Shown piece after piece: positions 51,230 through 52,838 of a stretch of DNA of 64,000 nt. Positions within the stretch are counted from its first letter, which is position 1; every line of letters begins with the position of its first letter. The DNA comes from an uncultured delta proteobacterium (GTDB lineage Bacteria > Desulfobacterota > Binatia > UBA9968), in contig CAWFJP010000011.1 of the NCBI GenBank assembly GCA_963816145.1, positions 128,001 to 192,000 on the forward strand. Direction: 5' to 3'. Position numbers and translations under genes: made by a program. The notes under the pieces are model-generated. The model did no database searches. It saw nothing but the letters and a program-made list of their open reading frames with translations, and was not told where the DNA came from.

Positions 51230-52297
51230 TTAATGTGGGGAGGTTTTCACCACACGATCGTAGCGAAACAGATACCCCAGAAAGTTAAGCTCTGCTCCCG
51301 CTTGACTCAACTCCACCACCCGCGTCTTGTCTCGGTTGATCTCCAATCCCAGCCACCCTTCGATCTTTGCTTCGATCCACTCCTTGAGCTCTCTTCCCTG
51401 GTAGCGCGCCAGCACCACAAAGTCATCGGCGTAGCGGACCAACTTTGCCTTGGCCCACTGCGCCGGCCCACTCTGACGGTGAAACACCTTGTCAAACCAG
51501 TGTAAATACAGGTTCGACAACAACGGCGAGATCACTCCCCCTTGCGGTGTCCCTTGGCGGTTGCGCTTTCCCCACGGCGTCCCTCCTCCCCCTCTTCCTC
51601 CCCGGCTCGGTTCGACCACGGGCGCTTTTAACCACATCCCGATCAGTTCCAACACTGACCGGTCCGCTATCCGCATCCGTAGACACGCCATCAACTTCTC
51701 ATGCGGGATCGAATCAAAGTACCCGCGCAAGTCCGCGTCGTACACCGCTTGATACCCCCGTTCTAACTGCCAGCGTATCTCTGCCAATGCTTGGTGCGCG
51801 TTTCTCTTAGGACGAAACCCGTAGGAACATTCCTCGAAGTCCGCCTCAAAGATCACCTCCAAGATCAGCAAACACGCCGCTTGCACCACTCGGTCTCTTA
51901 CCGTCGGTATCCCCAACGGTCGCTTTCTCCCGTCGGGCTTCTCGATGTACGCTCGCTTGACTGCTTGCGGCCGGTAGCTCTTGGTCCTAAGCTCTTGGTG
52001 CAGCCCTTCGATCAACGCTGCCTCTCCTCCTGCGGTTTTCTCGATGGCTTCGATACTCACCCCATCCACTCCTGGACCGCCTCCATTCGCTCTGACCTTG
52101 TGCCACCCGACCCATAACACATCGCGCCGATAGATCCGGTCGTACAATGCGTAAAACCGAAACTTCGGCTCGGCTTTGGCCTTCTCGCTTAGCTTATGTC
52201 TCAACAGAGAGACTTTCCCCATTGCCACCCTTCGCCGTTCGCCTCTCGACGCCGCTCCGGCTGGCTTCAGTTCTTCCGTAGTGGGACTTCTGTCCAA
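51230..52297 (-). pseudogene. Group II intron reverse transcriptase truncated after RT domain 7
   Basis: '[12 protein letters not shown]', 'PGVDG', '[11 protein letters not shown]', 'SYGFRP', '[10 protein letters not shown]', 'RYADD', 'FLGY'; no thumb/X domain. Confidence 0.92.
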
Positions 52298-52764
52298 GCG
52301 GTTCTCTCCCTCTCTTCCATAAGCACGTCTATGTTCAGGCCCCTTCGCTCCACGGTCGTTACCCGCTTCTCAGCTACTACGAGCCCATCCGACTCCCGCC
52401 AGGAACCGGTCACAAGTTATTTATTCCCTATGGCCGTTCTTGCTCCTGTGGGTCTCCCAGGTTCCTCGACCGATCTCTCCAAGCGCGCTGCCCCCTTTCA
52501 CCCCGAGCAGTCCGGCGATTGCTCCTACCCGTTGCTTCATCGCCGGTTCTGGCTTCATCTTATTCGGCAGACTGGCCACTGCCACTTTGTGTAACGAGGC
52601 CGTTTCGGGTTCGCGTTTTAACACTGCGGCTCGCGTGTTCGCCTCGCAAGGCTTCGCCAGCGGAATTACTCCCGCCCTCGCTTGCTCGGCTACTTGCCCA
52701 ACGGGTAATTGACAAGATATCCTCCTTTCAGAATATTAGATCGGCCAGGCTTATCCTGGCGCCC
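51254..52764 (-). mobile_element. 3'-truncated group II intron (5' ribozyme domains and RT present; DV/DVI absent)
   Basis: 5' end GGGCGCCAGG; intron-like segments GGAACCTGGGAGACCC and GAGTCGGATGGGCTCGTAGTAGC..GAAGCGGGTAAC..CGTGGAGCGAAGGG; removal restores an intact CACGAAG palindrome. Confidence 0.88.
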
Positions 52765-52838
52765 GAAGGACACGAAGAGCACGAAGTTCGGAACTTTAAT
52801 CATCCGAACCTTCGTGTCCTTCGTGCCTTCGTGGTGAA
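52765..52838. repeat. CACGAAG palindrome copy 6, split by the intron (missing TTCACCAC lies at 51246-51253)
   Basis: GAAGGACACGAAGAGCACGAAGTTCGGA...TCCGAACCTTCGTGTCCTTCGTGCCTTCGTGGTGAA. Confidence 0.9.

Follow-up and report, generated by a model that had tools for sequence, protein, structure and literature searches.

We report that a group II intron fragment lies on the minus strand of a 64,000-nucleotide (nt) stretch of DNA (hereafter the window; contig CAWFJP010000011.1, positions 128,001 to 192,000) from an uncultured delta proteobacterium of soil assigned to Binatia, where it interrupts the last CTTCGTG unit of a palindrome built of CACGAAG heptamers. In all likelihood, a class F-like intron without an endonuclease (En) domain and with an IIB-like RNA retrohomed into the point CTTCG|TG of this dispersed palindrome, and the window copy is a dead fragment of it that keeps motifs 0-7 of the reverse transcriptase (RT). 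The whole lineage appears to home into dispersed heptamer palindromes. Comparison of related introns shows that the repeat is used in multiple copies, with a retargeting of the exon-binding sites (EBS1 and EBS2) to the local repeat unit between hosts and phyla.

The element was recognized by matches to RNA and protein families on the minus strand, which bear out the claim of an earlier note, made from the letters of this stretch, that an intron is inserted in a palindrome resembling repetitive extragenic palindromes (REPs). In an Rfam scan of the window, RF02005 (group II domain I) matched positions 52725-52491 over its full model (1-225) with 67.6 bits, against a gathering threshold of 49. 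RVT_1 was found in the open reading frame (ORF) at 51230-52297 (4.9e-31), and the same ORF scored 318 bits (cut-off 300) with TIGR04416, the NCBIfam model of group II RT/maturases, over model positions 2-271 of 353 only. Excising 1511 bases (51254-52764) fuses TTCACCAC to GAAGGACACGAAGAGCACGAAGTTCGGA and regenerates every letter of the left arm of the intact palindrome at 5784-5866, as had been claimed. Read along the minus strand, the stop codon of a CheY-like gene (52902) is followed by TTCACCACGAAGGCACGAAGGACACGAAGGTTCGGA, a loop, TCCGAACTTCGTGCTCTTCGTGTCCTTCG and the intron, which reads GGCGCCAGGATAAG...TTTCGCTACGATCG and gives way to TG, TGGTGAA and unique sequence. The 5' exon (52764-52838) comprises the 5' arm of the palindrome, its loop and its 3' arm up to CCUUCG; the intron-binding sites are the GUG of the second unit (IBS2) and the CUUCG of the third (IBS1). 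The 3' exon TGGTGAA (51246-51252) is the outer end of the 3' arm and equals positions 5860-5866 of the intact repeat.

Relatives of the intron were gathered from species-representative genomes (80 loci) and from metagenomes (80 loci), all 160 being matched by BLAST to the window intron at 63-92% nt identity. The 5' junction was placed in 110 of these loci; the other 50, mostly cut by contig ends or too divergent, were excluded, although 18 of them were recovered by motif. Many metagenome contigs measure about 2 kb, hence short flanks. The full-length relative L087 (92% identity) reads ...CCGAACTTCGTGCTCTTCG|intron|TGGTGAGA with TTTTCACCACGAAGCTCACGAAG upstream, that is, CTTCG|TGGTGA, and occupies the same point of the same kind of palindrome as the window copy. 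The 3' exon TGGTGAA is common to the window copy, L087, L089, L092, L094, L104 and L006. Relatives thus put the true junction at CTTCG|TG, one base away from the insertion point given in the earlier note.

The same design recurred across the set. The intron's 3' end, CTACTCTAC, is kept in 114 loci and is followed by TGGTGA, TGGTTAA, CGCGAG or CGTCTTGGCG. The 5' exons end in tandem units (CTTCGTGnnCTTCG, CTTTGCGCCTTTG, CTCTGTGCCTCTG, ATCCTGTAAATCCTG, ATCTGCGTGATCTG, ATCCGTGnnATCCG, ATTCGTTCATTCG, TTTCGTGCTTTCG), and what is left of the unit opens the 3' exon, as TG in 39 unique sites and as CG in 28. With at most one mismatch, the IBS1 pentamer occurs again 8-10 nt upstream in 31 of 33 unique 5' exons from relatives with at least 76% nt identity and in 48 of 69 more distant ones, against about 5% calculated for random sequence. 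An exact repeat of the pentamer at this distance was found in 35 of 67 unique two-flank sites; among 2800 control positions taken from these loci the share was 1.1%. In 40 of the 67, the site recurs inverted within 100 nt upstream (14% of controls); no such enrichment was seen downstream (11/67 vs 15% of controls). Several genomes carry four to six copies each, in different copies of their own repeat and with unrelated outer flanks (L006-L009; L062 with L064-L068; L025-L028). Among the hosts named in the records of relatives are Acidobacteriota, Binatia, Chloroflexota, Desulfobacterales, Verrucomicrobiota, Planctomycetota, Bipolaricaulota, Nitrospirae, Spirochaetota and Gammaproteobacteria.

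How the intron RNA could select these sites was apparent from covariation. Mutual information linked exon positions -2 to -5 with four adjacent intron columns in a single hairpin loop of domain I. In the window this loop folds as GCCGAAUA, and covariation together with the hairpin fold places EBS1, CGAAUA, within its 8 nt at 52561-52566 (minus strand). Of 92 distinct exon/EBS1/EBS2 combinations, 80 show pairing of EBS1 with IBS1 over the full five positions; the observed mean was reached in 0 of 2000 shuffles. The EBS1/exon types comprise CGAAG/CTTCG, CAAAG/CTTTG, CAGAG/CTCTG, CAGGA/TCCTG, CGGAT/ATCCG, CAGAT/ATCTG, CGAAT/ATTCG and CCAAG/CTTGG, and 13 fully complementary EBS1/IBS1 pair types were each seen at least twice. 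The core of EBS2 in the window, (A)CAC at 52589-52592 (minus strand), directly follows a conserved GUUA; its partner in the preceding heptamer unit is (U)GUG, read GUGU. Across the set EBS2 reads CAC, CGC, UAC, AAC or AACGA, with GTG, GCG, GTA, GTT and TCGTT as partners in the preceding unit. With three registers allowed, EBS2 and IBS2 pair at 3/3 positions in 82 of 91 distinct combinations (shuffle mean 47.7, maximum 58), the shuffle tests for both sites overstating independence because related sequences share ancestry. The varied compensatory EBS1/IBS1 types are the stronger argument. Together, the covariation shows the intron RNA reading the repeat by base pairing, with IBS2 in one unit and IBS1 in the next, and EBS2 plus EBS1 mimic the opposite arm of the palindrome (CAC...CGAAG).

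A different stem-loop had been put forward as EBS1 in the earlier note. The hairpin CCGGCGAT...ATCGCCGG with its GUAGGA loop does exist, as the domain I hairpin CCGGCGAU...AUCGCCGG at 52508-52545 (minus strand), with GUAGGA at 52523-52528. One part of the loop, GAAGCAACGGG, is constant whatever the target, and the variable part is not the same in introns with a common target, for example L047 and L038. The loop does not covary with the exon and is therefore not EBS1; UGAAG, a second candidate in the same loop, was rejected on the same ground.

We then considered the supply of such palindromes in the host. The window holds six palindromic CACGAAG clusters, in agreement with the six copies reported earlier, with 18 pattern matches where 0.03 would be expected. 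Besides the intron-bearing palindrome and the intact copy at 5784-5866, they lie at 2246-2310, 4440-4503, 44317-44390 and 47748-47812. About 198 clusters with units in both orientations and 356 CTTCGTGGTGA sites were counted in the whole genome (7.82 Mb, 31 contigs). Strict parsing gave 136 elements, whose consensus is TCACCACGAAG..CACGAAG..CACGAAG-TTCGGA-loop-TCCGAA-CTTCGTG..CTTCGTG..CTTCGTGGTGA. The repeats cluster locally: six fall in the 64-kb window, where the genome average would give about 1.6. They are dispersed extragenic palindromes of high copy number and not classical RAYT-linked REPs. Seven matches to PF01797 (Y1_Tnp, IS200/RAYT-type) were found in the genome, on contigs C29, C16, C14, C3 and C18, and none of the seven genes is flanked by repeats; a single heptamer lies within 700 nt in two cases and none in five, which equals background. 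Three of the Y1_Tnp matches are about 165 amino acids (aa) long and three about 325 aa.

A genome with hundreds of repeat units therefore offers many harmless intergenic homing sites. No other copy of the window intron's lineage is present in this genome. The proposal that the repeat serves as a multi-copy intergenic homing site thus draws its evidence from the exons and covariation of relatives in other genomes and metagenomes, and not from this genome with its one copy. A single copy whose EBS1 pairs with its exon at only four of five positions is what would be seen if the intron had landed by chance in a palindrome, in a one-off ectopic retrotransposition by a lineage that normally homes elsewhere. 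We regard this as very improbable. Relatives sitting mostly in non-repeat targets, the case named earlier as speaking against repeat homing, were not seen: 31 of the 33 closest 5' exons, and 48 of the 69 distant ones, lie in tandem units of the same design. Moreover, EBS1 and EBS2 covary with the unit, and a full-length copy identical to the window intron occurs in other CACGAAG repeats in three studies. Two further group II introns are present in the genome, at C4:508969-510416(-) and C31:128550-129743(+), and are unrelated to the window lineage, their RTs being 38% and 34% identical to it, respectively. The C4 intron matches RF02003 (115 bits) and has RVT_1, GIIM and domain V/VI, while the C31 intron matches RF02005 (164 bits) and has RVT_1 and domain V/VI.

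The assignment of the lineage to a class was based on features of RNA and protein. In folds, domain V of the full-length L087 has a 5-nt loop (GAAAU) and a 2-nt bulge, and domain V is conserved across 122 loci. Domain VI folds in full-length relatives as a 49-nt hairpin (-28.8 kcal/mol) whose bulged A is 6 nt away from the 3' end. According to Nagy et al. (2013, PMC3753933, consulted in part), a 5-nt domain V loop is an idiosyncrasy of IIE and IIF introns, long domain VI stems are typical of IIF, and six nucleotides separate the branch point from the 3' splice site in Pe.th.I2 and Ge.ur.I1-1. Ge.ur.I1, So.us.I2 (from an acidobacterium) and Pe.th.I2 form the class F core in the part of Toro and Martinez-Abarca (2013, PMC3552965) that we consulted. 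As described in the excerpts of PMC3753933, these three introns have the same RT plus X domain without En and the same IIB-like RNA with EBS1 and EBS2 as the lineage studied here; class F introns also have the same 5-nt domain V loop, long domain VI and 6 nt between the branch A and the 3' splice site. Unlike them, the window copy is a fragment. By its RNA features, domain make-up and this literature, the lineage looks class F-like, and the earlier recognition of the RT as class F-like rather than class C fits every RNA feature examined. Class C is excluded because EBS2 covaries and domains V and VI are of E/F type. Insertion takes place inside the repeat unit, 7 nt before the end of the stem. 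Two other sources of a class label were of no use. RF02005, a D1D4 family, does not define class because the C31 intron matches the same model far better, and the sequence neighbours of the RT in the PDB are IIC, IIA and IIB enzymes only, which do not discriminate.

The window element had been taken for an intron, but it is a fragment truncated at its 3' end. It extends from domain I to part of domain IV, including the RT ORF (51255-52763, minus strand), as delimited by RF02005, by nt identity with relatives and by the end of protein homology. The open frame at 51230-52297 (minus strand) encodes a truncated RT of 355 aa, whose final seven codons and stop come from filler, exon and flank; an ATG at 52222 (MGKVSLL...) is the likely true start. 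The protein is 93% identical to its best relative up to ...FRYDR (aa 348), where homology ends, and the best 120 protein relatives are nearly all about 448-457 aa long, with RVT_1 and GIIM and no endonuclease domain. The X/maturase domain, present in relatives, is absent from the window copy. Domain V/VI lies about 50 nt past the ORF in relatives and was detected in L087, L089, L092, L095, L102 and L003, while a gathering-threshold Rfam scan of the window found no match to RF00029. By this comparison, the copy has lost some 470 bases of its 3' end, and with them the X domain, what remains of domain IV, and domains V and VI. It can therefore neither splice nor move, and it is an ordinary dead relic, a fragment of a group II intron and not a functional member.

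The fragment is 92% identical in nt to the full-length L087 and L088 over query positions 3-1510. Contigs from three public runs of three studies (soil and plant metagenomes) show zero differences from window positions 51255-52762: X1 is a contig of 2342 nt, X5 covers window positions 51255-52051 and X6 covers 51255-52509, and all three diverge from the window past both ends of the shared part. The zero divergence over 1508 bases indicates that the fragment is young. Past 51255, the last intron-homologous base in the window, the three contigs share the continuation GATCG|GGACCGCATGGGGGGCGAGCATCGTTATCT on the intron strand, which translates as YDR-DRMGGEHRYL, and the RT frame therefore runs on into the X domain. 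At 52762 the identical copies have one extra base, an A at intron position 2 (GAGCGCC, as in L087-L089), where the window reads GGCGCC, and beyond the intron 5' end the identical full-length copies run into other CACGAAG repeat copies. Of the boundaries usual for group II introns (5' GUGYG and 3' AY), the window shows G-GCG at the 5' end, with base 2 absent, where the closest relatives have GAGCG or GUGCG; a 3' end, ...CUCUAC, is found in relatives only. Where the identical full-length copy has GATCG|GGACC, the window has GATCG-TG-TGGTGAA at its 3' junction. Relative to that copy, the window copy lacks base 2 and about 470 nt of the 3' end, and has TG at 51254-51253, which either is filler or repeats the two bases that open the exon, before TGGTGAA at a non-canonical 3' junction. 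The statement that the insertion involved no duplication or loss was consequently an arithmetic coincidence of these three changes and an ambiguous G.

With its TG filler, the truncation stops precisely at the 3' exon, while the copy is otherwise identical to a full-length one; this suggests an error of integration. Once it had added two bases or copied them a second time, the RT may have switched from the exon to a site within the intron RNA, which would leave both the 3' truncation and the TG filler; we give such a template jump, or an internal re-priming of the RT, an even chance and hold it with low certainty. A later deletion, by a break with end joining or by replication slippage, whose end happened to fall on the intron-exon border could quite possibly account for the same structure. 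A 2-nt filler is typical of end joining, Dai and Zimmerly are said to have reported in 2002 that fragmented copies of group II introns are frequent among bacteria, and further fragments occur among the relatives (L099, L051 and L127). Against a deletion stand its right end, exactly on the 3' splice site and so at one position among hundreds, and the complete identity of 1508 nt to a full-length copy, which makes the event recent, so that it could coincide with integration. None of the 160 matched loci yielded another copy that is truncated at its 3' end yet keeps an exact 3' exon. It is unlikely that the truncated junction and the absent base 2 are assembly or read errors and that the real site holds a full-length intron or an empty repeat. 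The genome is a bin of 31 contigs with 6.7% contamination, and a 100%-identical full-length copy is present in the environment. However, a k-mer mis-join is improbable because the interior (…GATCG|GGACC) and the exon (…CTTCG|TGGTGAA) have only about three bases in common, and it could not yield GATCG-TG-TGGTGAA; the flanks on both sides are unique and continuous with neighbouring genes. At high identity, neither the truncated junction nor the unique sequence flanking the element in the window is spanned by any contig of runs X1, X5, X6 and X7; these runs neither confirm nor refute the junction, which rests on the assembly.

Composite arrangements were also seen among the relatives. At L141, L018 and L112, introns occupy successive units of one repeat, abutting or 9 nt apart, as tandem insertions: the 3' end of one intron (CTCTACTCTAC) is followed by one repeat unit and then by the next intron, or, at L112, directly by an intron 5' end. 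L099 (480-640) and L051 (1-180), from different sources, are both 5'-truncated at about intron position 395 and are preceded by AAGCTGGATGCGGGAAAACTGCACGTCTAGTTT..., which resembles domain V/VI of another intron, a recurrent chimeric arrangement. At L127 (2024-3363), about 1.3 kb of foreign sequence lies inside the X-domain region of the intron, with about 110 nt of intron duplicated at both sides.

The intron might instead recognize the DNA hairpin as a structure, as class C introns do with terminators and attC, the short EBS1 pairing only setting the register and the repeats serving as targets through their hairpin form and not through their sequence. The intron-bearing palindrome indeed folds into a hairpin at -40.2 kcal/mol (z -8.0), and an inverted partner lies upstream in 40 of 67 sites. 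In a sub-lineage comprising L025-L028, L166, L019 and L033, the intron sits precisely at the 3' foot of unrelated simple hairpins, ACUCUG or CCUCUG alone being conserved. These hairpins, in Acidobacteriota bins, are often preceded by GGTAGCGCAGAG, and this target suggests a different dispersed hairpin family. Recognition by structure is nevertheless doubtful for the lineage. EBS2 covaries with the exon, unlike in class C; insertion occurs inside the stem, 7 nt from its end, where EBS1 pairing competes with the stem; the position on the 3' arm follows trivially from the palindrome sequence; and 17 of the 67 sites have no inverted copy on either side.

Several points weigh against retrohoming of a class F-like lineage into heptamer palindromes. 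In this host a lone dead copy stands against some 200 empty repeats, so that homing is not shown here. The window EBS1 (CGAAUA) pairs with CUUCG at only four of five positions; the identical full-length copy has the same EBS1 and is also found in CTTCG sites. An acidobacterial sub-lineage (L037, L039-L041 and L073) is inserted at GCCCTTTCAGGG, with unrelated 3' exons and no tandem units, the seven hairpin-foot loci above depart from the pattern as well, and 21 of the 69 distant relatives have no tandem unit. The 50 of 160 loci without a placeable 5' junction, mostly cut by contig ends, were left out. Minimum free energy folds of the rebuilt empty sites with 60 nt of upstream flank were mixed, with the site on the 3' arm in 27 of 67, on the 5' arm in 9 and elsewhere in 31, an outcome too sensitive to flank length to carry weight. 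Finally, the class F label is drawn from RNA and protein features and the truncated junction from the assembly, and the way in which the truncation arose is a matter of inference.

As for the mechanism of retrohoming into the palindrome, the ribonucleoprotein (RNP) would reverse-splice into single-stranded DNA at the replication fork and use the nascent strand as primer. Such fork dependence is inferred because the intron has no En domain (PMC4424553 and PMC8914252, each consulted in part). Along the whole of contig C11, the GC skew of the plus strand stays at -0.02 to -0.04; the intron sense strand is therefore G-rich, as expected of the lagging-strand template if the usual skew rule holds, which is one weak point for use of that template. 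A wider scenario, to be held only tentatively, is that class F-like introns and tandem-heptamer palindromes co-evolve across at least ten phyla, with EBS2 plus EBS1 standing in for one arm of the palindrome, which the RNP displaces on the hairpin that extrudes from the lagging-strand template. Under such co-evolution, the repeat design shared across phyla (YTYYGYG, palindromic, with a period of 8-9 nt) would partly reflect long association. A bolder extension, in which the intron machinery helps to spread the repeats themselves, is less likely.

Some known systems resemble this one in part. For the IIF intron Ge.ur.I1-1, splicing is described in vitro at two additional sites, which lie 9 and 19 nt upstream and both follow (C)AUUCG, and its IBS2 is CGUGU (PMC3753933). 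Its 5' exon thus repeats the IBS1 AUUCG 9 and 19 nt upstream, the same tandem-unit target as in the window and in L062-L068. However, the portion of PMC3753933 available treats the repeated IBS1 only as alternative splice sites and does not contain the word "repeat", and that of PMC3552965 holds no discussion of targets or insertion sites for class F introns. Class C (IIC) introns likewise lack En and target a multi-copy non-coding hairpin motif, where insertions are harmless and numerous; they differ, according to the parts of PMC4424553 and PMC3753933 consulted, in having no EBS2 and in inserting just after the stem, whereas the window lineage inserts inside the last unit of the stem. RmInt1 (class D) is also En-less, proliferates through a repeated element and reverse-splices into the lagging-strand template (PMC8914252, in part), but belongs to another class and targets an insertion sequence gene (ISRm2011-2) and not a short palindromic repeat.

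REPs themselves have been described as insertion sites of insertion sequences, and are likewise dispersed extragenic palindromes (Tobes and Pareja 2006, PMC1525189, in the part consulted). In a table of that paper, 2 of 9 copies of a group II intron of P. putida KT2440 are associated with REPs. In the excerpt seen, this association is weak, concerns one species and comes with no mechanism, while pairing rules and covariation across phyla are available for the window lineage. The window repeats also differ from REPs in being built of tandem heptamers and in not being linked to Y1 (RAYT-type) genes. A 2015 review (PMC4424553, consulted in part) lists three target specificities for bacterial group II introns, namely homing sites, terminators and attC. 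No description of repeat- or REP-targeted homing by class E/F introns was found in the literature searched, subscription papers and the Zimmerly intron database being outside its reach, and a literature search on the heptamer strings returned only unrelated primer matches.

The palindrome bearing the window intron sits between two response-regulator genes, with the intron in sense orientation, and an NtrC-like regulator gene starts 57 bases downstream of it. This NtrC-type gene (49831-51196, minus strand) is split into two overlapping frames: the ORF at 50879-51196 holds the start of the receiver domain and that at 49831-50943 holds the remainder of the receiver, AAA+ and a helix-turn-helix (HTH). 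The split reflects either a frameshift near 50880-50945, the gene then being a pseudogene, or a fault of assembly.

Within the window the significance is minor, the relic lying harmlessly between genes, 57 bases upstream of one that encodes a regulator. For the intron family, homing into repeats would, if true, be a further "safe haven" strategy and a fourth target specificity beside homing sites, terminators and attC, with readable pairing rules (EBS1 to the CTTCG of a unit, EBS2 to the GTG of the previous one) that shift with the repeat of the host. The relatives would provide naturally retargeted introns, of at least 13 EBS1/IBS1 types, on which target recognition could be studied or engineered, and the heptamer palindromes would be a widespread and seemingly undescribed family. 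Homing into repeats would also explain the odd multiple 5' splice sites of Ge.ur.I1-1, and how En-less introns persist at several copies per genome without harm to genes.

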